A stretch of 63,222 nt of DNA, counting the filler, from Hausera hauseri (lineage: Eukaryota): the NCBI GenBank assembly GCA_046269625.1. It is 12 parts of 12 records of this genome, joined end to end, with 100 filler letters (N's around TTAATTAATTAA, not from the genome) between each part and the next. Parts side by side here need not be neighbours in the genome. Positions count along the whole stretch, not along the records: positions 14,416 to 19,315 come from JBJURY010398923.1; 11 more parts are not named here. One strand, 5' to 3'. This document shows positions 12,837 through 58,794 of the stretch, piece after piece (position 1 is the stretch's first letter; each line of letters starts with the position of its first letter). The translations under genes were made by a program, and so were the position numbers. The notes beneath the pieces were generated by a model. That model saw nothing but the letters and a program-made list of their open reading frames with translations. It was not told the origin of the DNA and searched no databases.

Positions 12837-14135
12837 TCAGAACCAAAATGGTCGAAATAAAATCAATTTATTTTTTAAAATAGTGTACAAAATGTATCTT
12901 CTGTTTAGTATATTTAAACAAAAATATTTTCTGATTGTCTGTATGTTTGTCGATAGATCGATAAGTAAACCTGATGTCAGAGGAATTTCAATGGGGGATA
13001 AATCACACAAGACAATTTCCTGACATCCACGATCGGTGGTGGAATAGAAATGAATAGCGGTATCGTATCCGATTAGCGAGAATTTCGCTCGTTCGGCACC
13101 GGGGAATTTCTCCAATAGATCTGATATCGTTTCCATAATCAACCGGATAATTGACGGATAAAGTGTCCCAGTGGCATTGTAACTGATGTCTAATAGAATG
13201 ACGTAATTTATACAATAAGATGACTTGACTGAATATTCTTTAGGGACGATGTATTCCACGGTAGCCATTTTAATTTCGGACCGTTTCAATGGGTCGACAT
13301 ATGCACCGGTTGTGTCACTGAACAAATAATCGTCGGACAATTCATTAACTTTGAGACAGAGATTGCATTTCCATCGGCGATGATCGGTAAACATGACAAA
13401 TGGATTAATGTATGCCCGACATGCCGATGAACGACATCGTTGGATCATTTTCGATTTGATGATTTGCAGACTGGACAAATCACGGAACGGATGGATGAGA
13501 AGAGCGAATGGCAATCGGGTTTTGTTCAGAATGTCTTCCGAACAAGGCACGGCATTGAGCGTACATCGCATCACGTTCAGATTGCAATTGGTTTTCTTTG
13601 TGAAATGGGACAAATCAGGAACGGGGACGGTGATGCCAAATGGCGGAATGAGAGTACGTTCATCGGCCACGTTTATCATTCGTCTGGATGGCGTCATTGA
13701 ATCGCAATTGAAACCGGATAGTGATGGTGGCGGAATACTGTCTTTAAATGCCATCGTCGATAGTTTATCGGCCGGTTGAGGGAGTTTCGGTGTCATGGAA
13801 TGGCTTACGTTGTTCTGCATGCTGACTTCACTGGTGTTCGTTGGAAATGGCGGCAAACTGTTGGTACTACAACTCATGTTTGTCGGCCTTTCTGGACCAA
13901 CTGTCATTGCGTCGATTGTGGGAATTCCACACGTCTGATCGATACAGCCGTAACTCGATTGGAAATTGATTTCATTCGACGAAACCAGTAATTGATCGTT
14001 TCCCGGATGAACTGATAAGCCCTGAAACGACCCGTTGAGTTTATTAATACCGCCTGTCGAAATGGGTAACGATGAAACGGATGACGATTCCACATTACTT
14101 TGAGACCGCTGACAATAGATATTTTGCGATGCCAT
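12837..14135 (-). CDS. SEC24: COPII coat protein SEC24, N-terminal half only (Zn finger + start of trunk/vWA domain), intronless and 3'-truncated
   Basis: NCNLNVMRCTLNAVP...LPFALLIHPFRDL...RCRSSACRAYINPF...WKCNLC...ATVEYIVPKEY...YVILLDIS...IGYDTAIHFY; homology ends near 12930. Confidence 0.9.
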   Translation of the reverse strand: MASQNIYCQRSQSNVESSSVSSLPISTGGINKLNGSFQGLSVHPGNDQLLVSSNEINFQSSYGCIDQTCGIPTIDAMTVGPERPTNMSCSTNSLPPFPTNTSEVSMQNNVSHSMTPKLPQPADKLSTMAFKDSIPPPSLSGFNCDSMTPSRRMINVADERTLIPPFGITVPVPDLSHFTKKTNCNLNVMRCTLNAVPCSEDILNKTRLPFALLIHPFRDLSSLQIIKSKMIQRCRSSACRAYINPFVMFTDHRRWKCNLCLKVNELSDDYLFSDTTGAYVDPLKRSEIKMATVEYIVPKEYSVKSSYCINYVILLDISYNATGTLYPSIIRLIMETISDLLEKFPGAERAKFSLIGYDTAIHFYSTTDRGCQEIVLCDLSPIEIPLTSGLLIDLSTNIQTIRKYFCLNILNRRYILYTILKNKLILFRPFWF

Positions 14136-14415
14136 ATAATTCGAATTGGAAAAGAAATTATTATTGGAGTGAAGGGGAGAGCGTAACAGTAACAGCGTTA
14201 GAAGAAAGGGAAATAATAGAAGAACCAGGACTGCAAATGATATGCGGAATAGTAAGGTTGAACCAGAAAAAGGAGATACCAGTGATGATAGTGAATCACA
14301 CGGGAAAAACCATCANNNNNNNNNNNNNNNNNNNNNNNNNNNNNNNNNNNNNNNNNNNNTTAATTAATTAANNNNNNNNNNNNNNNNNNNNNNNNNNNNN
14401 NNNNNNNNNNNNNNN

Positions 14416-16341
14416 TTTCATTCTCTCTATTAGGGTTTATTTTGATAGCTAAGTACAGTAATACTTTTCTTAATTATTCAGTGGTGTTTTCTACCATGAT
14501 CTTTTCGATCACCGTTTCATCGGTTAAGTTGCTTTTGATAATTTAAAACGTGAAATTCTCATCATCCTGGCTACATTAAATATCTCCATTTCTTTATCGT
14601 CCTGTGTGCCGCCTCGTAGGCTTGAATAATTTACAATTCGTATCAAATTCCTCATTAATTTGCTTAGATCTTCATTGTCTGTGCTGGACATAGGAATCGA
14701 CATTTGTCTCCACTCTGTAACCATTTCCCCATTATAGTCAACTTCTCGTGTCTTCTGAGGTCTACCGACTGGGCGTTTGTGTCTCAAGATATCGGTTATC
14801 GTTTTACTTAGTGGCACTAAATTTATATCATATTGTTCCTTGTCTTCATCCGTTTGTAAATATTCAAAATACATTGCAGCTTCTCGGACTCCCATGACTT
14901 GTCCCACACACTGTTCAGTTTTAGCTTTACGCGTGGCTTCTTTAGTCTGCTCATTGGCTATTATCACCACTATTCCATTTGTTTTGTCAGGTATAATCCC
15001 AACGTCTATCAACTGTTCTAGGTAGTCCAGTATTCTACCTCTAAAGTAGAATCTATAGCTTAGCTCGTTTGTCCCACCATTATTTATAAACTATTTTCTT
15101 ATATCCCTCACATAGGAATATGTAGTTAACTCACATTCTTTTTCATCCATCCGTTCGCATGATATTTTTATTTTCAGCGTTACCTTAGGTTTAGCCCTTA
15201 AGATTTTAGCATATTTCTTTATCGAAAGTTTCGGCATTGCGCTATAAATTGTGTTCTTACTAGACAATTTAGTCAAAGTCGGAATAAGTTGCCTTAACTT
15301 ACTTTCAGTAATGTTTACGTTAATTAGTTCGATTAAATTTTATTTAGATAGTGCTGAATCCAGGAGCATCTCCATATTGAATCTACTATTCTGCGGACAC
15401 GTTTCTAATTCATTTAGCTGTACTGAAGTCACAGGATTTTTGGCCGTTAATGCATTTAAGTACGCATCCCATTCCGGTTCACTTCCAATGTCTGGGGATC
15501 CATAGTCTTCCAATGCTATATTCATTCTTTGTACATTTTCTTGAATTTCCTTTAACTTTGGTTGTATTTCTTTAATCTGTGTGGTCCGGAACCCTATTTC
15601 GTTTCCACAAGCGTTCTGAATTAGTTTTAATAATTCGCGCAGTTCGTTCACTGAAATGAATCCTCTTTGATGGTAGTCGGTCAATTAGATAAGTACATTC
15701 TTTTGCCATCTTTGTAAAATCCATGCTTATTTTTTATTTCTGACTCAGTGAAGACGTATTTGTTCCGATAATTTTCGAGCTCTTTTATTAGTTCGTCTAA
15801 CCTGGTTGCTCTTTGTTTGGTTCTAAAACATGTTTCTTCAGCCTGTCTTATTCGAGATATGAATTGTTTCATCCTTTCATCACCAATCTGTGCCATTTCT
15901 ACGAGCAACAGTACAAGCTCGTATATGTCGTTAAGAATATTTAAGTCAGGATCTATCGCAGTGAGCAATTTCTTTACAAATTTAGTTTCCTCAAAACTAA
16001 GATGTTGGTCGTTTCTTATTTTTGTCAACTCGGTATGGCAATTCTGATCTGTTCCAGCTATACATTCTTGTGGTTTATGTATAAATCTTATTACTTCCTC
16101 TATAGCCGTTTTATGTTCTGGACAAATATCTAAGGCTTCGATATCCTGGATGGAAATTTCATCGATAGATTTAGCTGTTAGATGCTGGATTCCCTCTAGT
16201 CGGACGTTTCTTAATCTTGGGTGAAATTGGCAAGTCATATTCTGCTTTTCTGTAAAGATTGTTTCTTCGATCATTTTATATATTTCTTTTACATATTTTA
16301 TATATTTGTTCTAATATCGTTTCTATCATTGTGTCTAGCAT
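14416..16341 (-). pseudogene. ORF2 of the RING-LTR element: helical N-region + ubiquitin-like domain (~14960-15183) + AT-hook-like KRPVGRP; disrupted
   Basis: ORFs 15340-15684, 15091-15276 and 14524-15012 share one frame. Read-through gives VTLKIKISCERMDEKECELTTYSYVRDIRK*FINNGGTNELSYRFYFRGRILDYLEQLIDVGIIPDKTNGIVVII, which aligns by eye to ubiquitin (RFYFRGRIL vs RLIFAGKQL; LIDVGI vs LSDYNI). Confidence 0.65.
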
Positions 16342-16360
16342 ATCTATGAACTGTCAATTC

Positions 16361-17083
16361 TTATTCTTGTGCGAATTGTAAAATCCTTTCAAAATTTCCA
16401 GGTCTGGCCAAAATTAGCTGTTTAACTAAATCTCGGGACCAAATATCACTAATTAATTGTGTCGTCGTCATGACATCCAAATCTGGCGGGGTTGCCTTTT
16501 CTGCAGCATCACATTCTGCGTCTGATTTAGCTTTTGCTACATTAGCTATTCTCAAAGTACTCACATAACTATTAGCGAGTTTCTTCAATGCAAATGCAAA
16601 CTGGGTTACCGATTCACCCTTCTGTTGCACCCTATTCTGAAATGCCATAAGTTTCTGTTGTGGCCTTACACTCGGCAATAATTTACGGTTCAATGCTCCT
16701 ACCAAGGAGGACCAAGATTTCTTCTCGTCATTAGTAAGTTCACTATAAGCATCGGCGGATAAATTCTTCAAATATAGCGATAAACGTTTAATCATTATTT
16801 CAAGAGTAAAATTGGTACATTCTGCGTACAATTTATAAGTCCTCAAAAATTCGTTTAGCCCGTCCGGATCACCGTCGTATGCTGGGAGATTCAGAAAATT
16901 AAAAGTGAAGATGTCTAGCTTCTGCGCTACTGGTGGGTTCTCTGCTGCCATGTGAGTCTCAAAATTTACTTTATTAACTTTAAGTTCTACAAGAGGAATT
17001 TTAAACTTATCGATTCGCTCAACGGCGGTTAACTCTGTATTAGCTAAATTTACTCTAGTTTCCGAAATTGAACGTTTATGCAA
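16361..17083 (-). CDS. Retrotransposon Gag (capsid-like domain)
   Basis: LPAYDGDPDGLNEFL...LSLYLKNLSADAY...SWSSLVGAL...RVQQKGESVTQFAFALKKLA (major-homology-region pattern QxxxESVxxF). Confidence 0.85.
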   Translation of the reverse strand: MHKRSISETRVNLANTELTAVERIDKFKIPLVELKVNKVNFETHMAAENPPVAQKLDIFTFNFLNLPAYDGDPDGLNEFLRTYKLYAECTNFTLEIMIKRLSLYLKNLSADAYSELTNDEKKSWSSLVGALNRKLLPSVRPQQKLMAFQNRVQQKGESVTQFAFALKKLANSYVSTLRIANVAKAKSDAECDAAEKATPPDLDVMTTTQLISDIWSRDLVKQLILARPGNFERILQFAQE

Positions 17084-17358
17084 ATTTTTGCTATCTCTAT
17101 ATATATTCCTACTTGTCTAGCGTATATGCGAGTTCTTTCTATCGTTTCGACCAAGGTTTCCCTTTAGCCTATGAATATTTGTTCCCTAGATTTTTACTTT
17201 AAATTTTCCGTTCAACTTATAACCCCCCCCAAAATTTAAACTTCCGAACTATATTCGATTACTTGATGTGGGGCGCTGATCGCCGATGTCGTTTTAGTTA
17301 ACTCTCAGCTGAAGTAAAGTCTAGCGAGGCACTAATCTGTCATGCTAGGGTCGCCAAA

Positions 17359-18075
17359 TGTTATATATTGGGGTGGCCCTTATTCAACTCTCACTATATA
17401 ACAGTAGTTTCCTTGAAATTAAACTCTCTTATTCCGCAGGTAAGGTCTATCGAAACCAATAGACAAATTGTTCCTTATCTTATAGCTCTATTTTAAAACA
17501 GTAAGTGCGTGTACTGCGTGCTTTCAGATGTTTGCAATTTTAATGTACTCTCGTCTTACCTATCAAATTTTACAGTATATTTTAATTCCTAGTGGAGTCT
17601 AATTACCCTTATTGGACAATTTGAAACTATATGAAAGCTTTAAATCAAGACAAAATTTAATGAAAATAACGATTTCCAACTCACGGATATACAGGAATTC
17701 GGATCAATGATAAGATAATATCGTCAAAGTTTTACTGTTAATACTGACAGGTTTGATTCTCGTTTCAATTCTTCGTTTTCGCTACTTCTGTTTCACTGTT
17801 TTCACTTCTGCTTTTACAGTCTTAGAGCTTGTCAAAAAGCTGTTTTAATTTCCTTTTTTTTACTTTAATAGTGATTAATTTCTAGTTTTATTTCATTATC
17901 AATGGGTATATACATATTTGATTCATACCATATCTATTTACATTTATGACCAATTCAGTTAATTATAATTTCCGACAGTTGGAATAACAAAATTATTATT
18001 TATAATTAATATTGCCAGCTGTGGCATTAGTTTCGGTTCATGGACCATCCATTTTGATAGCCTACTGGTATAACA
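17359..18075 (-). repeat. LTR (~717 bp) of the RING element, copy 1
   Basis: Flanked by PPT upstream and PBS downstream; TG...CA ends; U5 half homologous to 56889-57200. Confidence 0.8.
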
Positions 18076-19315
18076 TTTCTCCTCTTTGAACTGTATCCTC
18101 GAAGGTGCCCATTTCATTAGAAGTGCCGCCAACTCTCGGTTGTCTCAGCATATTTATGCGTCATTGTAAACTCGCTCCGGAGTCTATGTTGGGTTGGTTG
18201 ATTCGGACATTTGTTTCTAACTTGTAACTATGATGGGGTCAGATACGGACTATTCGTGTATAACGTCCGTTTAAATAACGTTTTAGGTCAATCGCCTCGG
18301 CCCGGCATACTGGGCAAGTAGTTTTACCGTTTTCCAAGGTCCACCTCTCTAGACAGTCTCTACAATATTTATGTCGCGCTCTTTAGTGTCTAGGATATAA
18401 GATTCTTGCTGTAAGTCTGCTTCACTTACGGGACATTCGTGTGCTTCTTTCTCCCATTTCTTATCGTCTAGATCCACCCTTATCAATATCTCAATTTTCT
18501 CGAATATTAGACCATCCTCGCCCTGGTACAGGTACCCATGGATCCTGCTTTGTTTGGAATCTACGGAACTTCTTCTTGGATCGCAGCTTACTGTCACCAG
18601 TGTCCAGTCCGCCAAGACTTCGTGATCCAAGTTGGGAATCTTCTTTTCGGTCTAATACTTCTGATAATGTTTCTTTAGTAATGTTGTTATTTGTTTGTCC
18701 ACGGGTACCATTAGCCTGCCATTCCTTTTCGACTGGAAAATTGGGGCAACATATTTTCTTAACTTGGGATTTTCCCAGATGTAAGTATTTTTATGTACTT
18801 CTCTTTTCGGTGTGGTCTTAAGGTAAAACATTGCTTCTTTGACCTTTCCGTGACTATAATGTTCGGTGGTCACTAATATTTTTGAACAGTCCTTGGTTGT
18901 TGCGAATTATGTATTTCCTGAAGATAATCATAGAATGGAAGTTTTTTCCTTGATTCTTGGATCATTTTCTCAATTTTATGTTTTTTTTTAAATCTTCGGA
19001 ATTTTGAATATTCCGGTTTCGTTTTTTCCTTGGTTGTTATTTCGGATCTTCTGTGGCTGGTATCCGGTAGTTCCTCTGTGGTTGATTTTCGGACGGCCTT
19101 GGATATGGTTAGTTTAGGATTATCTTCTTCTACCGGTGCGATAACTCTATTAGTAGTATAGGTGCAATATTTTTCCGATGTTTTTCGTTAATCCCTTTTG
19201 GATTTGAAGAGCTGCATAGATTCCGTTCTGATTTATTGGGAGTCCATACATGATCCCACTTCAACCCTACATAAATATCGTGGTGGTATTGGATACGTTG
19301 ACTCGCCATCAACAT
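18062..19315 (-). pseudogene. RING-finger ORF of the LTR element, copy 1 (stops and frameshifts)
   Basis: TYIWENPKL...ADWTLVTVSCDPRRSSV...IHGYLYQ...ECPVSEADLQQ / RHKYCRDCLERWTLENGKTTCPVCRAEA; collinear with 57680-58705. Confidence 0.85.
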
Positions 19316-19415: not shown

Positions 19416-22380
19416 AATCCTAAATCGTACTGTTTCATAAGCACCCCATCATAGCGTTTTACAACTTCCACTAATTGACCCTCCGCAATTTCCGGTTTTC
19501 CCATTGTTCTCACTGCTGCAATCTCTCGTTCGAGATCCACTAATGCCGGTTTTCATTAATTTCAAATCAAATACCTTTAAAATATATATACGTCCAATAG
19601 CTTCCGGCCTGATTGTTACATTACTATCAATTCAATCCCATGTACTTCAGCACCTCATGTACTTCCCCAAACGCCCATCACTTTTCGAAAAGGCTCCACT
19701 CAATATTAAAGCGCACTTCGTTAGCCTAGGCTGTCCCATCGCTTTCCAAATCTTTCCATTGATTACTGACACTTGCTCCACTATCCAACATTTCTATTCC
19801 ACACTTGTTCAACTTCACTTTACTCTACCACCGTCCGTCTTCTCCCACTACCATTGCTGCATCTCGATTTTACAAATCTACGCCAACTCCACTGACGAAA
19901 TGCTCACAGCAGAGTTTCTTGTGTTTAAAGTTTCTTTAAAGTCTTCATATTGCACTATTTCATCCCTATGGTCGTCATACATCTCTTCTACACGCACACA
20001 TCGGATTTACCTGCCGTAATTTGAAAGTTTCTAAATCCGTGTCCACTTTTTCTACATATCAAACAAGTTGTTTAAAAGGCAGTTTCTCCTAATGTGCTCA
20101 TATTTTCCACAGAAAAACAATCACTTCTTCTTTCGACGCTGGTACCTGTTTCACGCTGCAGTAGAGCTTTCTAACTTCATTATACAGTGCGTTGGATCCC
20201 GTCTTTATCTGTGCTCAAACTGAAAGGTGGTTTCTTGTACGGAGCAATATTGTTCATCGACCTCGTTTCAAACCTTTCTTTTCTCGTATATTCTGTTCCA
20301 CTCTTGTGGTTGAACCGTCTTCTGTCATATACTTTCCAAGATTTCGCTTGGGAGCGTTTACAGCATTCCGGAAGGATTTCTTCACCAGAGCTCATTCTCT
20401 GTATTCTTCTACGGTTTGGCAATCCTCCAAAATTTTCACCTCCCTAATCTCTTCTACCGTCATTTTTGATTTGAAGACAAACTTCTGCCTTAACATTTGT
20501 TAGCCGCGGGAGCGTCCATGCCGCTCATCTCGTCGCTCAGCTTGGTTGAGTTGAAAAATCCCCGTCCTCTGGTATATCCGCTAAAGCGGAATTTGACCAT
20601 TTGTAATCACTCATTGAAAAGTTAACACCAGTTATTAAAATTATTATTTTAAAACACTCATTTTGAAACAAATTTCCTGAAATTCTCAATTTAAATTTTA
20701 TTTTTGTAAATAAATTTTTAATATTAAATTAAATTAAATTCGTGGTTGGCTTTTTTAATTTTTAAATTTGCTTTTAATTTAAATTTGGAATTTCACTTCA
20801 CGATTATATCCTCACATCCCCCTTTTTTAAGAATCTCCAAAGTTTGGCCATCTTCATGTCGTACGTATCGTCTGTCGTGTACTTTCTCAATGATCGTATA
20901 CGGGCCTTCGTATGTCTTTCTCCTTTGTTGTTGATTACTTCCGTACCAGCACCTGATCCCCTACTTCAAACGTCCTTTTTACCGAGGGTCCTTCCTGAGC
21001 CTCTGTGTTCCTCCCTTCTGTTCTTTCTTTTTGTCCATACCATCTTTCTCTATATATCATCCTGCCAAATATTATCTCTGTTAGGCTCTTGCCTGTCGTC
21101 TTTTGGATTGTCGCATTCGACGTAAATTCTATTTCTGGTAGTATGTCCTCCCGGTCCACTCTCGATTTTTCTGCTATGGTGGCATTTATGTATTCTCCGA
21201 TTGTTCGGAATTGTCGCTCGATGATATCATTTGTGTTGTGGTGGTATGAACTCGAATAGCGCTTTTTTATATTCATTGATGACATGTCTTTTATAAATTT
21301 CGACTCAAATGCTTTCTCGAAGTCTGTATGTATTTCTTTAGGTGTTCCGCATTTAAGGATCCATTTATTTTCTATCTCTGTTTTGATGGTTACTTCGTCT
21401 TGCTTCGGTATAGCAATTAGGGTTACGTATCTACTGTACTGATCTATCATTGCTAAAATATATCTTTTTATTCTCCATGTTTCCTTCATTGGTTCACAGA
21501 TATCTATGTATATTTTCTCGAATAGCTCGTTTGACGATAGGTTCACTGTTTCTTCCTTCGTGCTGTTTGTCAAGGTTTACTTCGCTGACAAGCTTCACAA
21601 TGTCGAACTACTATCTGGACTGCTCGTAGGTCGTACATATCGTAGTTACTGTCAATGTATTTTATTATCTTTTCTGATCCTGCGTGGGACAGCATGACAT
21701 GGTTATGCATTATCATTTCTACTTGTCTGTTCGTGTGTATTCACATCTTACCTGTTCGTATTTTTATATCGTCTTGTAATATAAAACTTCCTTGTTTACT
21801 TCGGACAATACTTTTATTTCTTCGATTTCCCTGCTGTCCTTCTGGTATTGGTGTTTTTGCTGTTTCAACGTTTATCCTCCGAGTCTTGCTTTTCTGCATT
21901 TTGGCGTCGTCGCGTCGTTGTAGACATTGGCTGCATGTTTCGCAACTCGTGCGGGGTAACATATCTGCGTTCGCATGATCTGTGCCTTTCCTGTACTCCA
22001 GATTGATTTAAAGACTGGATAGGTAGTTGATCCACGTCTGAAATTGGGCTGTTATCGGTTTTTTGTCTTTACCATGAACGTTATTGCCTTGTGGTCCGTT
22101 CTCAATGTGAACCGTCTCCCGTATAGGTAATGGTTGAAATGTTGACAGAAATAATACATGGCCAGTAATTCCTTCCGAGTTATACAATATCCTTTTTAAT
22201 GGTTGTTCATTGCGTTTGATCCGTATGCAATCACTATCTCGCGCCCAAAAGTATCCTTCTGAGGCAGTACCGCTCCAATTGTGTCTAAGCTTGCGTCCGT
22301 ATCAAGGATAAACTCTGTTGAAATCAGGGAAACCTATTATTGGCGGTGTGGCTAAGGCTCGAAGGTCTCGTTACATTACC
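19416..22380 (-). mobile_element. Ty3/Gypsy element in pol - PPT - LTR - PBS - gag/protease arrangement, degenerate
   Basis: RNase H ILDTDASLDTIGAVL...RKELLA...LRTDHKA (22000-22320); integrase KIYIDI...IERQFRT...FEVGDQVLVR (20935-21573); PPT aaaaaaggggga; degenerate CCHC CGKYEHIRRNC (~20080-20120); protease LDSGA (~19770-19790). Confidence 0.8.
20602..20816 (-). repeat. AT-rich LTR (~215 bp) shared between upstream pol and downstream gag
   Basis: TGTGA...TTACA ends; PPT directly 5'; 2-nt spacer then a TGG-initiated PBS-like sequence (tggtcaaattccgc) 3'. Confidence 0.7.
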
Positions 22381-22741
22381 CGGTCCATATTATTTGTGGA
22401 TGTTTTCGTTTGTTGGCTCCGCTCTTGTTCGTATAAGTTGCATATCGGGAATAAAAAAATATCCTAGCTGAACAATTTGAAGTCGTCGAAGAAGAAAACC
22501 TTTTATTATTTAAACACATTTAAAAAATATCAGTGTTTTTCGTTTGCTTTTTGCATTTGCTATCACGGTAATTATTCTGCCTCCCCACACATTATTCCTG
22601 TTTGTCGTAAATTTATAATATGAATAAGAAGTCAATTCACTGATGTTATAAATACTGTATTCAATTACGGATTCGTGAAATTTAGAAAATCCAATGTTAA
22701 AGAAAAATCATGCCCGAAATTTTATTTGTTTTAGGCACAAC

Positions 22742-25006: not shown

Positions 25007-28000
25007 TTATATTTGAGAATCTAGAATCTTCTTCACGACTCCATCGACCTCGTCTGCACTGACTCCATCTCCATGATCCTAAATAAACAATAATAACATC
25101 AACATCATCATCGTTATCATTCGTTGGTGCATCTCCATCACAAACCTTGTCTACTTTCTGAATCAATTTAGCGACATCCTTACGCAAATTCGTCAGTTTG
25201 TCTTTGTAAACCGTTGTTTCCGCTTGGAAATTCGTGAACAATTTACGTAGACCTTTCTCGTAATTGTCAAAGAACTTATCCAGTGGAAATTCGGCGAGTT
25301 CTTTCGGTGTCAGCGAGTGGATAGCGTCTTTGTCAATGGGCCATTCTGGTGGCAGGAAATACCTCAGACAGACCCTGAATTGTCGTTGTCAAAAGATCGG
25401 TCAAACACTGTCTCACTTCAGATTCTCGAATACTTTCTCGGAATTGGCGAGTACGTTCGCCGATCGATGGCGAATATCGGCACTCGTCAGCGGCATCCAA
25501 ATGTCGGCATCATCCTCATTTACTGGATTATCCAATTTGACCCTCCACTGATTGTCCTTCAGCTCCTGGACTCGCCCACTGACCCATTTGTTGTTCATTC
25601 GCAACTGCACGTCCAACATTGATGCCCCTTCTGGTGTCCCGGATCCAGTCTCTTCCATCTGCAACAAGTTTCATGAGTAATCGTTATCTTCAACATGAGT
25701 AATACTCACAGGCTCCTCCTTGATTCTGTTACTATCGGATACGGATGTCGGATGTTCACCATTGACAACTGGTACGCTCGTCTGATTCTCCTGCCCTTTC
25801 TGGTTCCTCGTCGTCGGTCCACTCGACTGCGGCTGTGTGTTGTCTTTACCTCTCTTCTCTGGTGTCTTTGTCTCATTATCCTACACAACAGCATTCATCT
25901 CGTCAATCAATAAATAATGACGAACGTGGGATTTATGTTCAATTTTACCCACCGGCAATGGTTTCGTACTGGCGAATGGATTCTTCGATTCAGTGTTCGA
26001 CGATGTCGATGAATTTAATTTAGGTATTTTTGTTGCAACGACATTGTCTCGGGATTTCGTGATTGTATCCGATTTGCCTTTCCGTTGTTCCAGATTGCGT
26101 GCTGCCTTTTCCGATGGCATCGTGACTTGATGCGGCTTGAGATTTTTATTCTGCAGTGCGATTGACGGCGTTAGTCCGCCACTTTTCGATTTGCGGACTG
26201 ACGAATCCACTGATGTCGATTTTGTCGGCACATTCACCTTCTCTTGGATGGCTTTCTTGGCGACGGTTTTCACCTTCCTACTCGGTCGACTGCCTATCTC
26301 GTCATCATCGATCTCCTCCTCCTTCTCATCCTCATTGTCCTCTTCCTCATCTTCGTCTTCCTCTTCTTCGTCAGACGAATCCAACAAAAATCGCGATTTT
26401 CGGCCGCCACTTTTCCGATCACCGCCGGTTATTTTCTCCAACTCTTCTTGCTTCTTACGAATTTGCTCTTCCAGCTCAGCCTGTCGCTGTTCTTTCGTTT
26501 TGATTTTCCGTTTGAGCGTATCGACGGGGATGTTCAGTTGTTGTTCGGGCTCTGCACATTTCTTGTGCTTTGGATCGGGGTTGTCTTTACATTGCCAACT
26601 ATCGGGTACTTCTTTGCCAATGAGATTTTGCTGGAATGGTAAAACACGCCATTTCAGACATTGGTCACATTGCACACTCAAATTGACACTCATCGCTCGT
26701 TTCTTGACGAATTTCTCGTCGCCACTCGGCGGATCTCGCCATTTCGCTGATTGGTATCCGAATTTCGCCCACAGTACATCGGCACTTTTGGAGTCCATCC
26801 CGATATCGTCCCAATATTGCATCAGATGATCTGCCATCGCCCTCATCAGTGCACGGAATTCCTTGGCGTCAGCAAAGTCCTGTTTGTTGTGAGTCGGCTC
26901 CAGGACGAGATAAGGCACATTGACAATGCCGACAACTCCACGACAAGTCAATCCGCTGTCTTGTTGTGGACCAATTCGCTGGTACATTTTGATGAGTCGT
27001 GAACAATTGTATACGAACATGCCGTCACATGCACGATTTTCCAGATTCATGCCGAAGTAGAATGTGAGGGTTTTCGGTTCTTTCAGTGCTCGTTGTTTAC
27101 GGTTGTATGCGTTTTGTTTCATTTTTACCATTTCTCTCGTTTCCGATGCTTTGTTTTTGATGTATCTCACCATTTTCTAGTGATTGAAATTATTATTTTT
27201 CATAAATATTAATTTTGATAAATATTAAAATTCGTAAATATTCCATTAAGCCGTTACTCACCAACGTCTCAGCATCTGTCACATTGGCGTACCGATTATC
27301 AACGTCCCGTGCCTTACTTTCCGCTTCTCTCGCCTTCATCTCAGCTGCACATTCAAATGGCAATTAGCAACCAATTATCGGCAATTAATTCTCACCTATT
27401 TTCACCTCCTCCTTTGCACGACTCACCTCCGATTCAGCACGAGTCTTGAATGTCTTACTGGCATAATGATACATACGAGGCTTATACAGACAGCTGACGA
27501 GACGTTTTGTTTGAACTTTTCGTCCTTGGAGATAGACCTTCATACGAGGATCTGAATAGAGAATGGACACATACGCCCGGAGACTCCGTCGTTCGGGACA
27601 CAGTCTATTAACAGATAAATGACCTATCATAAGGCATAATTGGCTTACTCGACATCGACATCAACACCAGCATTCTCACCGAGATCAGGATGAGTCAAAA
27701 TGACATCACGACTGTCACTGAATACATCCAATTCGGCTTCACCGTTGTCCAGTAATTTCATATTGTAAATGATGACCAGAGTCCCTGTTGGACCTTTGAT
27801 TTTGTCGAATTGGGAAAATAGGTCCTTTAGACATTTGAATGGCGAGTATTTCAGAATAAGTGACACTTCAAGTTCGTGTCGTTTCTTTTCTTCAGTTGTA
27901 TCCGATATCGGAGATTTATCCGATGTTCGGAATGACGGCAATGGTACGATAACCTCGTCGATCTTCTCCTCCTCGTGGAAAGTCCGTGAAAGAAATAGAC

Positions 28001-29251: not shown

Positions 29252-32200
29252 TCCCTATGTCTCTCTCCATCTCTTTCTCTCTCCCTCCCTCCCTCTCTCC
29301 CTCTCTCAATCCCTTTCTCTCTCTCCCACTCTCCTCTCACTCTCTCTGCCTCTCTCTCACCCTCTCTATCTCCCTTCCTCTCTCCCTCCCTCTCTCTCTC
29401 TCCATCCCTTTCTATCTCTCTCCTTCTCTCTCCGTTCCTCTCTCTTTTTCTCTCTCACCCTCTCTCCCTCCCTCTTTCTCTCCCTCTCTTTCGCTCTCCC
29501 TCTCTCTCCCTCCCTCTCTCTCTCAATCCCTTTCTCTCTCTCCCACTCTCATTCTCTCACTCTCCCTCCCTGCCTCTCTCTCTCCTTCCCTCTTTCTCTC
29601 TGTCCCTCTCTATCCCTGTCTCTCTCTCCCTCCCTCTCTCTCTCTTTCTCAATCCATTTCTTTCTCTCTCACTCTCGTTCTCTCACTCTCTCTCTCTGCT
29701 TCTCTCTCACCATCTCTCTTTCTCCTTTTTCCTCTCTATATCTCCTTCTCCCTCGCTTTCTCCCTTCCGCTCTTTCGCCCGCTATTTCTCCCTCCCTCCC
29801 TGTTTCTTTCTTTCTCTCCTCCTCTCTCTCCCTCTATTTGTCCCTCTCTCCCTGTCCCCCTCTCCCTGTCCCCCTCTCCCTGTTTCCCTCTCTCTCCCTC
29901 CCTGCCTCACTTTCTCCCTCCGTCTTTCTCTCTCTGTCTCTCTCTCTGTCTCTCTCCCTGTCTCTCTCTCTCCCTCTCTCTCTCTCTCGCAATCCATTTC
30001 TCTCTCTCCCACTCTCTTTCAATCTGCCTCTCTCCCTGCCTCTCTCTCACCCTCTCTCTCTCCCTTTGTCCCTTTTTCTCCCTCCCTTTCTCTCTCTGCC
30101 ACCCTCTCTCTCCTTTTCTCCCTTGCTCTCTCCCTCTTTCTCCCTCTCTCTCTAACTCCCTCTCTACCGCACTTTCTCCCTTTCTCCCTGCCTCACTCTC
30201 TCCCTCCCTCCTCTCTCTCATTCTTTCTCCCTCTCTCTCTCACTCCCTCTCTCCCGCACTGTTTCCCTCTCTCCCTCCCTCCCGCTCTCTCTCTCTCATT
30301 CCNNNNNNNNNNNNNNNNNNNNNNNNNNNNNNNNNNNNNNNNNNNNNNNNNNNNNNNNNNNNNNNNNNNNNNNNNNNNNNNNNNNNNNNNNNNNNNNNNN
30401 NNNNNNNNNNNNNNNNNNNNNNNNNNNNNNNNNNNNNNNNNNNNNNNNNNNNNNNNNNNNNNNNNNNNNNNNNNNNNNNNNNNNNNNNNNNNNNNNNNNN
30501 NNNNNNNNNNNNGCTCTCTCTCCTTTTTTTCCTCTCTTCTTTTCGCTCTCTGTTTCTCCTTCTGTTTACCTCTGTCTCCCTCTATCCATCTCTCTCTCCC
30601 TCCGTCCCTCTGTCTCTATCTCCCTTTCGCCGCCTCTCTTTCTCTGTTTGTCTGTCTCTCTCTCTCTCCATTTCTTTCTCTCTCTCTCTCCTTCTCTCTC
30701 TGTCTCACTGTGTCTCCCGCTCTTTCTCCCTCCCTCTCACTCTCCCTTTCTTCCTCTCTCTCTCCCTCTCTGTCCCTCTCTTTGTCTGTCGCTCTCTCCC
30801 GCTCTTTCTNNNNNNNNNNNNNNNNNNNNNNNNNNNNNNNNNNNNNNNNNNNNNNNNNNNNNNNNNNNNNNNNNNNNNNNNNNNNNNNNNNNNNNNNNNN
30901 NNNNNNNNNNNNNNNNNNNNNNNNNNNNNNNNNNNNNNNNNNNNNNNNNNNNNNNNNNNNNNNNNNNNNNNNNNNNNNNNNNNNNNNNNNNNNNNNNNNN
31001 NNNNNNNNNNNNNNNNNNNNNNNNNNNNNNNNNNNNNNNNNNNNNNNNNNNNNNNNNNNNNNNNNNNNNNNNNNNNNNNNNNNNNNNNNCTGTCTCTACC
31101 TATCTATCTCTCCCTCTCTCTATCTCTTTCTCTCTCCCTCGCTGTTTCTCTCTCTCTCTCTCCCCCTCTTTCTCCCTCTCTGTCTCGCTCTCTCTTTCTC
31201 TCGCTTTCTCTCCGTCCCTTTCTCTCTCCCTCTCTCTCCCTCTCCTTTTCTCCCTATCTCTCCCTCTGTTTCCCTCTGTCTTCCTCTATCCCTCTCTCGC
31301 TGCCACTCCTTCCATCTGTCTATCTCTCCATTTCTCCCTCTCTGTCTCTCTCTCTCTTTCCCTTTCTCCTACTCTCTCTCTCTTTCGCACATTCTCCCTC
31401 TATCTCTCTCTATCTCTCTCTCCCGCTCTTTCTCAATTTCTGTCCACTTCTCTCTCGCTCTCTCTCTGCCTCTCTCTCTGTCTCTCTTTCTCTATCTCTC
31501 TCTCTCCCACTCTCTCTTAGTCTCTCTCTCTGTCTTTCTCTCTCACATTCTCCCGCTCTTCTCCCNNNNNNNNNNNNNNNNNNNNNNNNNNNNNNNNNNN
31601 NNNNNNNNNNNNNNNNNNNNNNNNNNNNNNNNNNNNNNNNNNNNNNNNNNNNNNNNNNNNNNNNNNNNNNNNNNNNNNNNNNNNNNNNNNNNNNNNNNNN
31701 NNNTCTCTCCCTCTGATTCCATTTGTCTACCTCTATCCCTCTCTCTGCCACTCCTTCCCTCTGTCTCTCTCTCCTTTTCTCCCTTTCTGTCTCTCTCTGT
31801 CTCTCTCTCTCTCTTTCCCTTTCTCCCACTCTCGCTCCGTCTCTTACTCTCTCTCTCTCTTTGACTCTCGCTCTGTCTCTCGCTCTCTTTCTCCTTCTCT
31901 CTCTCCCGCTCTTTCTCACTCTCTCTCCCTTTCTCTCTCTCTCCTTTTCTCCCTCTCTCTCTAAATCTGTCTCCCTCTATCCCGCCCTCTCCCTCCGTCC
32001 GTTCCTATCTCCCTCTCTCCCCTGCCTCTCACTAGTCCTCTGTTTCTTTCCCCTTATCCCTCTCTCTCTCCCTATTTGTCCGTATCTCGCCCTTTCTCTC
32101 TCCCGCTCTTTCTCCCTCTCTCGCCCTCTCTCTCTGTCTCTGTCTCTGTCTCCCTCTCTCTCTCTCCTTCTCTCCTTCTCTATCTCCCTCTGTCTCCCTC

Positions 32201-34840
32201 TCTCTCCGTATATCCGTCTCTCTAGCCCCCTCTCTCTTTAGCCCTTTCTCTTTCTCTTCCTCCCGCTCTTTCTCTCTCTCTCTCTGTCTCTCTCTCCCTC
32301 TCTTTCTCCCTGTCTCTCTCCCTCTTTCTCTCCCGCTCATTCTCCATCTTTCTGTATTTCTTTCTCTCTCCCTCTCTCTTTCTCCTTCTCTTTCTCCCTC
32401 TCGCGCTGGCGCTCATTCTCCTCCTCCTCTCTCCCGCTCTTCCTCCCGCTCTTTCTCCAATTCTCTCCCTCCCTCTGTCTCTCTCTCCCTCCCTCCCTCA
32501 CTCTCTTTCCTTCCCTCCCTCTCGCCCTCTCGCCCTCCCTCCCTCTCTCTCTCCTCTCTCCCTTCCTTTCTCTCTCGCTTTCTGTCTCTCCCTCTCTCTC
32601 CCTCCATTCCTCTCTCTCTCAATCCCTTCATCTCTCTCTCTCTCACTCTCGATCTCTGCCTCTCTCTCACCTTCTCTATCTCCCTTTCTCCCTCTCTCTC
32701 TCCCTTTGCCTCCTGTCTATCTCCGTCCCTGTCTCCCTCTCTCTCCCTCTGCTTCCACCTGTCTTCCTCTATCCCTCTCTCTCCCACTCCGTCCCTCTGT
32801 CTCTCTCTCCCGTTCTCCCTCTCCCTCTCTCTCTCTCCCTTTTTCGCTATCTCTCTCTCTCTTTCGCTTTCTCCCTCTCTCTGTATTTTGCACTTTTTCC
32901 CTTTATCTCTACCTCTCTCCCTCTCCCTCTCTCTCTACTGCTATCTCTCTCTCTTCCGCTCTTACTCTCTTTCTCTCTCTGTACCTCTCTCTGTCTCTCC
33001 CGCTTTTTCTCGCTCTCTCTCTCCCCTTTCTCCCCTTTCTCCCTCTCTCTCCCCCTTTCTCCCTCTCTCTCTCCCTTTCTCCCTCTCTCTCTCTCCATTT
33101 CTCCTCTCTCACTCTGTCTCTCTCCCCCTTTCTCCCTCTCTCTATCTCTCTCTCCCTTTCTACTTCTCTCTCTGTCTCTCTCCCCCTCTCTGTCTCTCTC
33201 CCGCTATTTCTCTCTCTCTCTTCCTCTATCCCTCTCTCTCTCCCCTCCGTCCCTCTGCCTCTCTCTCCCGTTCTGCCTCTCCCTCTCTCTCCCTCGCTGT
33301 CTTCCTTTCTCTCTCCCCTCTCTCTCTATCTCTCTCTATCCCTCCCTCCCTCCCTATATATCTCTCACCCGGTCTTTCTCCCTGTCTTTCTCTCCCTTTC
33401 TCTCTCTTTCCCTCTCTCTCTGTCTCTCCCGCTGTTTCTCGCTCTCTCTCACCCGCCCTATCTTTCACTCGTTCTCCCTCTATATCGCTCNNNNNNNNNN
33501 NNNNNNNNNNNNNNNNNNNNNNNNNNNNNNNNNNNNNNNNNNNNNNNNNNNNNNNNNNNNNNNNNNNNNNNNNNNNNNNNNNNNNNNNNNNNNNNNNNNN
33601 NNNNNNNNNNNNNNNNNNNNNNNNNNNNNNNNNNNNNNNNNNNNNNNNNNNNNNNNNNNNNNNNNTCTCTCATTTTCTTCCGCTCTCTCTTTCTCCCTCT
33701 CCCTCTGCCTTTCTCTCTCTCCCTTTCTGTCTCTCTCTGTCTTTCTCTGTCCCGCTCTTTCTTCCTCTGTCGCTCCCCCTCTCCCTGTCTCTCTCTCTAT
33801 CTCTCTCGCCCTCCCTCTCTCTCTCCCGCTCTTTCTCCCTCTCTCTCCCTCACTGTCTCTCTTTCTCTCTCCCCTCTCTCTCTATCTCTCCCTATCCCTC
33901 CCTACCTCCCTCTCTATCTCTCGCCCGGTCTTTCTCCCTGTCTCTCTCTCACTTCCTCTCTCTCTCCCGCTCTTTCTCCCTCTATCTCGCGCTCTCTCTA
34001 TCTCTCTCTTTCTCTATCTCCCTCCCTCTTTCTCTCTTTTCCCCTCTCCCTGTCTCTCTCCCGCTCTTTCTCCCTCTCTGTCTCTCTCTTCCTTTCTCCA
34101 TCTNNNNNNNNNNNNNNNNNNNNNNNNNNNNNNNNNNNNNNNNNNNNNNNNNNNNNNNNNNNNNNNNNNNNNNNNNNNNNNNNNNNNNNNNNNNNNNNNN
34201 NNNNNNNNNNNNNNNNNNNNNNNNNNNNNNNNNNNNNNNNNNNNNNNNNNNNNNNNNNNNNNNNNNNNCCCCCTATATCCCTCTCTCGCCCTCTCCATCC
34301 CTATGTCTCTCTCCCTTTCGCCTCCTCTCTCTGTCTGTCTGTCTCCCTCTCTCTCCATTTCTTTCTCGCTCTCTCTCCCTCTCTGTCTCTGTTTCTGTCT
34401 CTCTCTTTCTCTCGCCGTTTCTCCCTATCTCTCACTGTATCTCTCCCTCTCTCTCTTTCTCGCTCCCTCTCTTTCTTTCTCTTTGTCTCTTTCTCTCTCT
34501 CCTTCTTTCTCTCTCTGAATCCCGCTCTTTCTTCCTCTACCACTCCATCTCCTTCTTTCTCTCCCTCTCTCTCTCTATCTCTCTCTCCCTTCCTCTCCCT
34601 CTACCGCTTTTTCTCCCTCTCCCTCTCTTCTTGTCCTGCTCTTTCTCCCTCTCTCTCTCCTTTTCTCCCTCTCTCTCTCCCTTTCTACCCCTCTCTTTCT
34701 TCCCCTCTCTCTGTCTCTCTCCCGCAATTTTTCCTCTCTCTGTCTCTCTCTCCCTTTCTCCCTCTCTGTCACGCTCTCTCCCTCCCTCTCTCTCTCTTTC
34801 TCTGTCTTTCTCTCTCACTGTCTCCCTCTCTCTTGCTCGC
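29252..34840. repeat. Degenerate (CT)n polypyrimidine low-complexity block with internal N gaps
   Basis: Overwhelmingly C/T on the + strand; recurrent cccgctctttctccctctctc motif. Confidence 0.97.
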
Positions 34841-40144: not shown

Positions 40145-43100
40145 TTATTCCAAACGCCAATGTCCGTACGCCCAACTCTTATTTTGTCCCACCCACTTTC
40201 GCTTATCATCATTGCATGATAGAGCGACTTTTGTATTGGTCACCATATACGGCTGGTGCTCAATTTATCGTATAATCCCTTGAGACACAACAGCCTTTGT
40301 TTGTTCTCCGTATCCTCCTTCATAGATACGGCGATAATCACCGTGGTTTATTTCCGTTTGGGCCAATAGAACTCCTTTTGTGCGCATTTTTGGCCAACCG
40401 TCAGTTAAAAGGCTATAACATTTTGGCCGTAGAAATACACATTCCCAATACTGAACTCGACCTTCACTTTCATCCTTAAAGCAATCGATTTTGTTTGTGA
40501 TGACGTTGCTGTACAATGGATGATTCTGTGGTTAATTGGACGTGTCCAGTAATCCGTCTGCCATCATTTTCCGCAGTAGTTATTCGGGATTGCCGTTTTC
40601 CAGTTCCAAGAAAAAACTATTTGTGTCACCGGCAATTATATTGACCTTGCATTTGCCGAAAATTTGCTGATAACGTACCAAATCGCGATACTGCAGCTCA
40701 TACATCCGCAACTTGCTCAGATCCAATACCACGTGTCCTATATAACTTGGCCGGTCCAGTATGCCTTATTCTCTGTTTAAAAGCACGGCAACCAATCCAT
40801 CAGCAATGTGCATTGATCGCCTGAACTGCGCCTTGCTGGTGTATGTGACCAAACGCTTTTCGCTTTTGCACAGGCGTACGTTGAGCCGTTTTTTTCAGAT
40901 TCTCTATTGCTTTTCCGTAGAGAGAATTGTTTTTCAGCTTGTAATAGTGTTTTTTAAACTTTGTACAACCTGCAGCTTGTTTTTCCGAATTCCGACGTAT
41001 ATTAGGATTGAATATCGGAGCATATGGGAATCGGATTGCGCGATGTAAATGTGCGACGCGTACACCGAGCTGCACGTAAAATTGCAACAGACGCCAATGA
41101 ACTATGTAATTTTGCTTAGGTTCATGTGTCATAAGCAGTTTCTTTACCTTCGAGCCTGGCGGACATTGGCTAATTGGTGCGACCGGTAATTCATCCAGAA
41201 AGTCATGCAGCTCATCTGGTACCACGAGGTCGACTTCCATCAGGTATCTGATTGAGCTGCTTTCTATTGTGTCTTCTCCCAGCAGATTTTCCATTATGTC
41301 GTCCAGGTCCTATTTGTCTACTATCCATTCGAATGAACCGTACGACAAGGGTTGTGAAAGCGCCCAGCCGTACAGATTATTAATGTCGATATATATCGGT
41401 GATGTGGTATCATCACTGGTAGCAGCAGCAGCAGCAGCACTAATATGGTGCTTGTTGACAAATGTCATGCCGCCAAGAATACCAACATCAAACATTCGGT
41501 GCATTTCCGGATATTGCAATAGCTCGATATCCCAATCCAGTGACATCAGAGTTGATGCTCAACTCATTCCGGGTATTGAGTAAAATTTTTAATGGCTCCA
41601 GACTATCTTCTGCCAACGCTTTAGTCCGAAATGTTTGAAACACAGCGGCTAATATGTACACATTCAATTTCAGATACTGAAGCATATACTCCAACAGTAT
41701 TCTGCAGCCGAGCTCTGTCCAAAACGACTGTGCATTGTGATATTCTTATTCTGTGATACCGGATCATTGCGGTGGTAGTTCGTCTGTCGTATGGAGCCGC
41801 TCGTGCGATATCGCAAAGTCATACGGGAATATGTCTTTGCTATACGAAATATGCACAAGGAACTAGGTCGTTGTTAGAGGCACATTTGGCAAGGCATTTA
41901 CCAGCTTTACCAGAGATTCATTGAGAAATGGCAATGAATTGAGGAAGCGTAACTAGAACCATTTTAAACGAGCAGACAATGGCACGTATTTCTCCACTGT
42001 AGTCGGAATTATGGATCGTTCCCTGTACGGAAATTTGCTTCTTGCCCATTTCAAAATATGTTGACAATCATAACTTCTAAAGTTATGAAATACCACCGGC
42101 ACAAGTGGCCGCACAGGCCGTGCTAAATTGCGTGAATTGTATGCCGCTCCTAGGAATCGACATGTAAAATGTCATGATCCGGCAGCAGCCGTTTCTTTGC
42201 ATCGAACGGTAATATTTTGTGGCACAGATAACACTCATCTGTGATAGCAAATGTCGGGCGTTCATCTTCATCTGTCCAGATCAGAGGTTTGGTGCTATTA
42301 TCACAATACCACGTTACGATTTCAGCTTCCATTATGGTTTGAAACTGCTGCAAGAAATAGAGTGCACAATTCCATCCGTGGAAAATATAATATTGAGGTT
42401 GACCTGCGGCTTTTATTGGGACAACCAACATACCGACAGCGATTGGAACATGTTTTTGGTCATTATGTTGTACCGCGGTAAGATAACGTCGATATTGGCA
42501 TATACTACATATGCCGGACTGAGTGTTTTTGCCCAATCAATGAACCTGAGTTCCATCTTGACAGGCATGACATACTTTATGGTTCCTGACGAATTTTGTC
42601 TGCACAGAATCACATGTTTTTCCCATGTTGTTTCTGATCTGAATCCATGCAAACATACAGGACACCATTTACACTGTAAACTCTTTTTCATGAAGTCGTC
42701 ATGTTCCATGTTCAGCAATCTGTCCAGATTTGTCACTGTAACGTAATAATAATTTTCCTTCTGCTCCAATAGCAACAAATTTACTGAGCAGTCATTTGGG
42801 TTCCGACTACGATATATTATATCCACATGAGGATTTTTGTAAATTTCTTCATCCGCTGGTATTTCTATTATTGTGTTGTACCGGAACACATTGATTGCCA
42901 GTGTCGGATTATGCTGTGAAAATGCCGGAATGGAGTTCAGTTTCATCGGCATCCAGCTTTCATCGAAATCCAATTCGGAAAAATATTTCTGATACTGTTT
43001 TGGACGATATGCATATGTCTGTCCAATTCGTCATATTTCAATACCGCCAAAATACTGTAAAGCAAACAGGATTCATCGTTAGTATTTTTTACATTTACTA

Positions 43101-56230: not shown

Positions 56231-56800
56231 TTAATGATATCTGAGTCCAATCCGAACAAAATCGACATTCGAATTAGCCTGAAAGTTGTTAAACATTATA
56301 TGTCCGATTGGATTATTACAACGACTGGTATGTTGATATGGTACAGTCGAAAAGATCTGAGATTTAAGCGAATTGATAGAATTCGTAGTAGATAAACGAG
56401 ATTCTGAAAGATCATCCTGGGTTGAATCAACTACAAATGCACTGTGAGTGCTTTTGTTTGGCAGGACTGAATTGAGATCGGTGATTTCCACAATCGGTGG
56501 AGTTGAAAGTTCATCACGAACATAGTTGGAATTTGCGCTTGGATCAGGTTGAGAAACCTTTCCGATCAATTCGGATACGAATGACGTGTGACTTGTTGGC
56601 TGATTTAGAACATCAAAAAAGTCTTCTCGAGGTGTCGAAGACACATCAACTATCGCTTGGTTATCAGTTTGAGAATAATTTACGTCGCCATGAGGCTCAT
56701 ACTGATTGGACCTTCCAGTTAAGCGATTATTACATGTCTGAATATTGGTATGAGGAAAACCATATGCTTCCGAACGACTTTGTGGATTACAACAATTCAT
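56231..56800 (-). CDS. Hypothetical S/T/N-rich protein fragment
   Basis: 189-aa ORF; no domain recognised. Confidence 0.3.
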   Translation of the reverse strand: MNCCNPQSRSEAYGFPHTNIQTCNNRLTGRSNQYEPHGDVNYSQTDNQAIVDVSSTPREDFFDVLNQPTSHTSFVSELIGKVSQPDPSANSNYVRDELSTPPIVEITDLNSVLPNKSTHSAFVVDSTQDDLSESRLSTTNSINSLKSQIFSTVPYQHTSRCNNPIGHIMFNNFQANSNVDFVRIGLRYH

Positions 56801-56888
56801 TAAATTTTGTTCTCTGGTATAAAATTTATTTACATAACAAAATCCGACATTTCTCTGGCTAATATATTCTCTTTTTAATTGTTTAAAG

Positions 56889-57687
56889 TGTTATATTTTG
56901 GGGTGGCCCTTAACGATATCCCGCTATATAACAGTGGTTTACTCTTGAAGTTAGTCTCTTATGCAGATTCGATTTAACGTTCTCGTTAAACGAATGTGCC
57001 AATGTGTATTAATTTTTAAAAGAAAAATCTGCGTGTACTGCTTGTCGTGTCCTGTGCAACGGTTAAATAACGTTCTCGTGCTTATAAGAGTTTAAGTAAA
57101 TTTTATTTCTTACTGTCGTCAAATCAGCCTTAAGGGCCGATGGAAACTATAGTGGGAATTTAGAAAAGAATCAATAAATATACCAATGTAATAGCCAACA
57201 CAAAGGATCACAGCGATTGATGAATGTCTTTAGTACTGTTGAATATCACTGAATGAATCACTGAGAATCTTCGCAACACCAGTCAACTCTATAGTCAACG
57301 AATATTTGGCTGTTCGACACTACAGTCGAGGAAAACTTTTCGCAAATAAGTTTCAAATCGCAGGTTTAACCGACACTATAGTCGATAAAAATTTGTTCTC
57401 TTTTCTCTCATTTGGTCTCGTATTTATAGTTCAACGCAGGTGCTTTTTCAATTTATTTTTCATTATCGGTATTTATTTTGCAATTTCCGCGATTTCGAAA
57501 CATTGTTTATCTTTTGATTAAAATGCACTGCATTATATGACTGTAAATATTCGCGTAATTTTTCTAATTGTGAACTATTTACAATGAATCAATTTTGAAT
57601 TATATGTACACAATCAACTCGAGCCAACAACAATTTAGTTTCTCTCTCAGTCGATTCGAGTTGAATTGGAATTAGTTTTTCACAACA
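56889..57687 (-). repeat. 3' LTR (~799 bp) of the RING element, copy 2
   Basis: PPT cagggaggagaga then TGTTGTG at 57687; ends ...AATATAACA at 56889 with no PBS after it; homologous to 17359-17640. Confidence 0.8.
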
Positions 57688-58794
57688 TCTCTCCTCCCTG
57701 AACGACATCCTCGGATGTGCCTATTGCGTCAGGAGAGGTGGCGCCCAATGGTCTCGTTCCTCTTAACTGGTTCATTTTCTCGTGTAAGTCCAATAGGGAG
57801 TCCGATCTAGCTTGACTTGTTGAAGGTCTTGGTTCAATGTCATAACTGTAATGGGGTTGTATTCTAACCATTCGAGTGTAGCTCCCGTTAGAGTAATATT
57901 TTATCTCGGTGGCCTCCGCACGACATACCGGGCACGTGGTTTTCCCATTGTTTAGGGTCCATTTCTCCAAGCAATCTCTGCAATACTTGTGACGGCAGTT
58001 CTTATTATCTAGTATTACGTATCCCTGTTGTAGATTGGCTTCGCATACAGGGCATTCATTTTCTTCTTTACCCCAATCGTCTCGATCTAAATTGACTTGA
58101 ATGGTTAACTCGATTGGTTCAAAGGTGATTCCGTCGCCGTCTTGATATAGGTATCCGTGGATTATTTTCTGTTTGGGATTCACTGAACTTTTCCGCGGAT
58201 CGCAATCTACTTGGATTAACGTCCAATCCGCCATAAATTCTTGATCTAAATCGGGAATCTGTCCTTCTACCTTATATTTTTGATATTGTTTCTTTAGCAA
58301 AATCCTAATCTGTTTGTCTACGGGAACTATTATTTTTTCTGTTCTTTTGGAGCGAAATACTGATGTGAGGTATTTTCCGAGTTTGGGGTTTTCCCAAATG
58401 TACGTGTTTTCAAAGACTTCTCTTGCTGGTGTCATCTTCACATAGAATACCGCTTCCTTGATCATCTTTTTACTATAATATTCTCTAGTTACTAGCATTT
58501 TGGGCAAGTCTTGAACTGTTTTATAATGTACCTCTCCTTTGTCCTTCCTTTTGATTAAGGAGTTAATTTCAGTTATTATGGGGCTTTTAGATTTCTTTTC
58601 GACCGAACTTATATTCCTTGATGTACTTGGCCTGTCATGTTGTCTTCCTATTTCTTGTTCTGGGTTTATCTTCCCTTTCTTAAATAAATAGTCATAAATA
58701 GACAAGGTTCTTTTGGGTTTGGGTTGTTCTTCTAACTTAGGTTTCTTAATTAAAATTTCCGTTTTGGGCTCGTCTCGTTTCTTTGTAATCCTTG
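57680..58794 (-). CDS. Intact C3HC4 RING-finger ORF of the LTR element (open to contig edge, >=370 aa)
   Basis: CPVC-x15-CRHKYCRDC-LEKW-x8-CPVCR; no stop up to 58794; the stop codon lies inside the first bases of the LTR. Confidence 0.9.

Follow-up and report, generated by a model that had tools for sequence, protein, structure and literature searches.

Among described long terminal repeat (LTR) retrotransposons, the planarian Burro/GYPSM1 elements resemble the element considered here most closely. They are present in thousands of copies with an internal region of up to 25 kb (PMC6431247; this and all other papers are cited from excerpts), and Burro is abundant and PIWI-silenced (PMC8532177, PMC13238120, PMC11410931). 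Open reading frame 1 (ORF1) of Burro comprises 4,873 amino acids (aa) with retrotrans_gag, two or three CCHC knuckles, AIR1, Smc, MATH, Ubi2/SUMO-like, BCL2 and env, and continues after env as protease-dUTPase-reverse transcriptase (RT)-RNase H-integrase, i.e. env is located between gag and protease (PMC6431247). BIR and ankyrin are also found among the Burro/GYPSM1 cargo features, accessory ORFs exist, some of which can be subdomains of the polyprotein, and the elements have been proposed to meddle with host ubiquitination and apoptosis (PMC6431247). A second precedent is provided by the rotifer LTR elements Juno and Vesta, whose ORF3 is an active DEDDy exonuclease, a fold from which Maelstrom and EXD1 are inactive derivatives (PMC5408684). 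Here we analyse a 63,222-nucleotide stretch of DNA from Hausera hauseri (assembly GCA_046269625.1; hereafter the window), in which positions 14416-19315 join an ORF for a RING finger protein to an LTR, gag and a long second frame, ORF2. We suggest, at a probability of roughly 60%, that this junction derives from a decayed copy of a much-repeated, large Ty3/gypsy-like element that is Burro-like, has its own pol and carries a 3′ accessory gene for a predicted ubiquitin ligase.

The RING finger gene and its LTR element

The window consists of ~5-kb contigs strung together with N spacers, and 14416-19315 is one complete contig (4.9 kb). On the minus strand it contains a broken RING ORF, a purine tract, an LTR, a primer-binding site (PBS), a leader, gag and ORF2, which runs to the edge, i.e. 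the 3′ end of one LTR-element unit is followed by an LTR and the 5′ start of a unit. A second copy of the RING ORF lies further along the window.

18071..19315, minus strand: 3′ part of the accessory RING ORF, copy 1; broken, crosses the polypurine tract into the first LTR bases, contig edge at 19315
18076..18087, minus strand: polypurine tract, read from the sequence, directly upstream of the LTR
17359..18075, minus strand: LTR, 717 bp, TGTTATA...TATAACA, i.e. TG...CA with 7-bp inverted ends; polypurine tract upstream, PBS downstream
17340..17356, minus strand: PBS, starting TGGCGACC, read from the sequence, two bases downstream of the LTR
16361..17116, minus strand: gag capsid-like ORF between two stops; 196 aa from the Met at 16951, without zinc knuckle
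14416..16341, minus strand: ORF2, a long and decayed cargo frame, truncated at the contig edge
14938..15189, minus strand: candidate ubiquitin-like segment within ORF2, 84 aa with one in-frame stop
58792..57683, minus strand: 3′ part of the RING ORF, copy 2; 370 intact codons with the C3HC4 finger at aa 247-290; truncated at the contig edge
56889..57687, minus strand: 3′ LTR of copy 2, 799 bp, same 3′ end as the LTR 17359..18075; flank behind it without PBS

The RING ORF belongs to the LTR element and lies inside its 3′ end, as seen in two copies. In copy 1 the frame is disrupted by stops at 18654, 18241 and 18163 and by a frame change within the finger, and one zinc ligand is gone. Copy 2 has the order RING ORF, polypurine tract, LTR and a flank lacking a PBS and, because such a flank lies behind its LTR, represents the true 3′ end of an element. 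The 3′ ORFs of the two copies share 67% DNA identity and 59-60% amino acid identity (tblastn, copy 2 against copy 1, E=3e-90), and the finger of copy 2 matches zf-RING_2 (Pfam, E=2.3e-9). Thus, the position at the polypurine tract that the sequence-only reading had given to a RING ORF upstream of the LTR is confirmed and, via copy 2, so is the RING itself, but the copy 1 frame is not intact. A 219-codon open frame (56231-56890, minus strand) starts exactly at the 3′ end of the copy 2 LTR; it has no Pfam match and could represent either captured cDNA or an exon of the host.

In the 219 codons that can be aligned between copies 1 and 2, the proportion of synonymous differences (pS) is 0.83, i.e. 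saturated, that of nonsynonymous differences (pN) is 0.20 and pN of the RING is 0.11, with a bootstrapped pN/pS of 0.19-0.32 (95%). Judged by these differences, the RING ORF is under strong purifying selection, and the earlier proposal of a Gag-bearing LTR element family that encodes its own RING protein inside its 3′ end is supported both by the two copies and by this selection. The C3HC4 features, i.e. eight zinc ligands, a Trp in the helix, and Pro and Arg at the last Cys pair, are complete in copy 2 and in the full-length relative described below, P0001; Trp, Pro and Arg at these positions form the usual contact pattern for ubiquitin-conjugating enzymes (E2s). Moreover, the finger of copy 2 aligns with RNF4, RNF38 and RING1B. 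From its intact and selected finger, the RING protein is likely to be a ubiquitin ligase (E3). A single-sequence fold of copy 2 has a predicted local distance difference test score (pLDDT) of 34.7, and the ESM Atlas returned only generic RING clusters for it, below 0.9.

A C3HC4 RING with the usual E2-contact pattern is also found in UHRF1, Parkin and HOIL-1, host ligases that combine a ubiquitin-like (UBL) domain with a RING, and in the viral RING ligase ICP0, and here a mobile element encodes the predicted E3. Unlike in the three host ligases, UBL and RING are here most likely on different proteins, and there is no evidence of SRA, PHD, IBR or SUMO interaction.

The LTR that follows the copy 1 RING ORF and the copy 2 LTR are the two in the window that have TG...CA ends preceded by a polypurine tract, and only the former has a PBS behind it, which we take to be of the tRNA-Arg type. 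Similarity between the two is found mainly in the last 76 bp (79%) and in an inner patch of 71 bp (73%), their interiors being otherwise dissimilar. We read the lone LTR, which has a 3′ end on one side and a 5′ start on the other, as either a tandem unit or an assembly collapse. No Rfam match was obtained.

A full-length relative with a DnaQ-like domain

A phmmer search with the RING ORF against 1.84 billion representatives yielded 424 matches. Among the 150 matches listed, one extends beyond the finger, namely P0001 (870 aa, 49%, E=2.6e-76), a called protein of an ENA sequence on a 16,242-bp contig. The RING ORF of copy 1 matches P0001 residues 394-443, 604-765 and 763-870, the contig edge at 19315 corresponding to residue 394, and the first 393 residues have no match anywhere in the window at E<=1. 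The final residues are VQ(G/R)GEML in each of the three RING ORFs (18071-18090, 57680-57700 and the C-terminus of P0001, which reads VQGGEML). In the window this ending is encoded by the polypurine tract and the first LTR bases; the RING ORF therefore overlaps the plus-strand priming site.

Residues about 246-345 of P0001 match DnaQ (8h18, E=1.5e-4) and the PolC exonuclease (2p1j, E=4.4e-4), and NCBIfam DnaQ-type models match with E=0.004-0.011. The ExoI Glu and the ExoII Asp are catalytic acidic residues in the motifs of DEDD/DnaQ exonucleases; those of 8h18 are aligned to non-acidic residues in P0001, and ExoIII is outside the alignment. P0001 thus contains a DnaQ-like nuclease domain in which catalytic residues are replaced, likely a pseudonuclease, followed by a linker, a conserved pre-RING domain and the RING. 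It has no ubiquitin-family match (Pfam), no pol domain and no match to ORF2. Since P0001 has an N-terminus of its own and a DnaQ-like domain, but neither a UBL domain nor a counterpart of ORF2, the RING probably resides on a separate accessory protein rather than on the ORF2 product.

An additional 3′ ORF whose product has an exonuclease fold of the DnaQ superfamily is reminiscent of the gypsy-type elements Juno and Vesta from bdelloid rotifers. The ORF3 of these elements, however, is an RNase D-like DEDDy enzyme that retains its catalytic residues, and the excerpts of PMC5408684 do not mention a RING; here DnaQ and PolC are the best matches, catalytic positions carry substitutions, and the fold is fused with a RING. 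In the literature searched, no DnaQ-like pseudonuclease-RING ORF is described for an LTR element, although the supplements of Grohme 2018 or the Repbase Burro entry may list a RING or nuclease ORF.

Other searches added no relative. A word-based protein search with the RING ORF found 0 among 1,026 candidates of 203-648 aa, a range that P0001 lies outside of, the ESM Atlas gave no match for P0001, and no locus related to the RING ORF, the alignment A1 or ORF2a was present in the scanned JGI metagenome, IMG/VR and GTDB contigs. Two further candidates, P0003 and P0016, were dismissed as chance matches to repetitive bacterial proteins.

Gag, ORF2 and the candidate ubiquitin-like segment

On the other side of the LTR, the earlier description of an LTR-PBS-gag layout with a polypurine tract is borne out by the sequence, gag being identified by Pfam Retrotrans_gag (E=0.0025-0.0037), a match that is under the curated cut-off and weak but located where expected; dArc2 capsid matches weakly (E=0.55). 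ORF2 had been described as an ORF of more than 600 codons. Its length holds, with 606 codons before the stop at 14526 and 642 when counted as far as the contig edge, but the frame is not open: it shifts near 16310 and again near 15690, and in-frame stops interrupt it at 15342, 15093 and 14526. Gag is closed by a stop and ORF2 is in a different frame, both within a decayed copy, in which native state and decay are indistinguishable. The copy at 14416-19315 is dead, as all its cargo frames, gag-side ORF2 as well as the RING ORF, are broken. The three minus frames of 14416-17340 contain no protease, RT or CCHC motif, in agreement with the claim that the ORF2 region lacks protease and RT motifs. 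A word-based protein search for ORF2 relatives found 0 of 4,607 candidates (677-2,000 aa) and 0 of 2,166 (212-676 aa), and no ORF2 homologs for building an alignment were found.

The sequence-only reading also included a ubiquitin-fold-like segment in ORF2. The segment 15189..14938 does follow the ubiquitin/SUMO pattern when judged by eye, and as an isolated 84-aa piece it matches Pfam ubiquitin with E=0.16 at model positions 10-64 of 72, one of two families listed. However, other ORF2 and gag pieces draw unrelated Pfam matches at E 0.03-0.11, so that E=0.16 on its own is at chance level, and solely the identity of the match and the coverage of 55 of 72 model positions speak in its favour. With 386 aa of context there is no ubiquitin match at E<=1 (Pfam), PF11976 is not listed for the 84-aa piece, and no PDB match was obtained at E<=10. 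The single-sequence model (pLDDT 45.8) contains strands but lacks the helix expected after strand 2 and is uninformative. Hence the pattern stands, but the fold is not established; mostly by the precedent of Burro, we lean towards a ubiquitin-like domain.

The nature of the element and competing explanations

The element family is highly repeated, as 8,126 contig pieces from run X1, the one run that contains the stretch and possibly the source sample, were placed on the 4.9 kb at 80% likeness. At the 3′ end of the LTR 17359..18075, 35 contigs of this run have flanks unlike each other, and the LTR end plus PBS (17340-17427) is far more repeated than the LTR interior. One contig with 0 differences links the RING ORF to the LTR (17876-18362), another connects the PBS region with the gag start. 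No RNA run containing the stretch was among the runs listed.

With Burro1-4/GYPSM1 the element shares a front Retrotrans_gag followed by long non-pol cargo, an accessory ORF and high repetition, and where Burro cargo has a Ubi2/SUMO-like domain there is here a candidate segment; ubiquitination-related domains are common to both (PMC6431247). The architecture was thought to be unlike that of described LTR families, but gag with ubiquitin-like cargo is already catalogued for Burro/GYPSM1; in contrast, a DnaQ-like domain, as found in P0001, and a 3′ RING ORF entering the LTR, as found here, are not listed for Burro in the excerpts of PMC6431247. What appears to be new is that an LTR element carries, at its 3′ end, an accessory gene for a pseudonuclease-RING protein that is under selection. 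By analogy, the element likely works like Burro yet is not classed as Burro, as neither CCHC knuckles nor an RT are seen. We assume that the Burro label 'AIR1 (RING Zn-finger)' may mean the gag knuckles and not a C3HC4 RING.

Several observations weigh against a large Burro-like element with its own pol. No pol or env of the family is seen in the visible parts, the contig ending 2.9 kb past the PBS. CCHC knuckles are absent from the three minus frames behind gag, as compared with two or three in Burro, and Pfam finds no MATH, BCL2, BIR or ankyrin in the visible parts, including the 642 ORF2 codons. A heptad test for a coiled coil is not significant (32 of 200 and 82 of 200 shuffles match the score), and for a giant element the LTR 17359..18075 is short. 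Support for the ubiquitin-like segment is weak, and the DnaQ-like part lies past the contig edge and is known from a single relative. Finally, summed depth, which is not a copy number, is 1,718-33,611 in the gag/ORF2 bins as opposed to 99-385 at 18024-18843 and 5-19 further out, and no contig of run X1 covers LTR to gag of this copy, with 17164-17207 bare at 85%.

The last two observations would be expected if the RING ORF and gag-ORF2 came from different subfamilies joined via similar LTR ends by recombination or assembly, most gag-ORF2 elements lacking a RING gene, and the differing LTR interiors and the fact that no single contig spans the unit would fit as well. Yet two contigs contain the same LTR interior, one connecting it with the RING ORF and the other, from another copy, with the PBS (17286-17905, 66 differences), and the faster divergence of the 3′ ORF alone would lower the depth at the 80% threshold, which makes such a chimera quite improbable. 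Somewhat less improbable, but still unlikely, is a non-autonomous element that has an LTR, gag, cargo ORFs and the RING gene but no pol and depends on an autonomous partner for its copying in trans. The 2.9 kb behind the PBS without protease or RT motif and the lack of a pol domain in P0001 agree with it, but the contig edges cut both ORFs and Burro pol starts thousands of residues past gag (PMC6431247). As a Burro-like element would show no pol 642 codons behind gag, pol not being seen is no evidence of its loss. Moreover, long-term purifying selection and heavy gag/ORF2 repetition fit a self-replicating lineage better, although a parasitic one is still compatible.

Very unlikely, in our view, is the earlier suggestion of a single polyprotein with ORF2 at one end and the RING ORF at the other, forming a UBL-RING ligase like UHRF1 or Parkin. 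Both frames do run to contig edges, and Burro accessory ORFs can be polyprotein subdomains (PMC6431247), but P0001 is a called protein whose N-terminal 393 residues match nothing in the window and that has no ubiquitin-family match. With ORF2 and the RING ORF unlikely to be one protein, the analogy drawn with UHRF1, Parkin and HOIL-1 loses its support, too, UBL and RING not being on one chain in P0001. A separate decayed compact gypsy element at 19416-22400 (minus strand) has a protease-like motif and an integrase (rve, E=3.8e-8); it was rejected as the missing pol, since it lies on a separate contig, has its own CCHC gag and has no DNA or protein match to the element.

Returning to the Burro-like element, we do not claim autonomy or Burro kinship, as no pol or env of the family is seen. 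Gag would lie at its front together with a long cargo frame that may encode a ubiquitin-like domain, pol would probably be in the unassembled middle, and replication would proceed via ordinary gypsy reverse transcription using this pol. In the accessory protein, the dead nuclease fold together with the pre-RING domain, which is conserved, may bind RNA or a host protein, while the RING may recruit an E2, so that host factors of restriction, silencing or cell death would be tagged; if the ubiquitin-like segment is real, it would be part of the gag-side protein rather than of the RING chain. A bolder variant, which we regard as a long shot, is a counter-defence, anti-piRNA ligase whose dead DnaQ-type domain, comparable to the ones in the piRNA factors Maelstrom and EXD1, attaches to RNA or to the silencing machinery, which the RING then degrades, with the gag-side UBL serving as decoy or adaptor and, in its boldest form, without any pol. 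To our knowledge, few counter-defence proteins of animal LTR retrotransposons have been described. A RING ORF that is joined to a dead nuclease fold and strongly selected across diverged element lineages makes a concrete candidate for a ubiquitin ligase encoded by such an element, one that the intact natural RING domain of copy 2 makes testable and that would render the idea of Burro acting on ubiquitination (PMC6431247) directly testable.

The remainder of the window contains putative Polinton-type DNA polymerase B fragments, recognised by eye (40800-43521, 52469-52984 and 61042-63122), and a long degenerate CT-rich low-complexity tract with assembly gaps (29252-34840). Two minus-strand fragments, a Sec24-like one of 491 uninterrupted codons (12837-14312) and a MORC-like one with zf-CW and 431 uninterrupted codons (25881-27176), are possibly retrocopies and, being of animal type, suggest an animal host.

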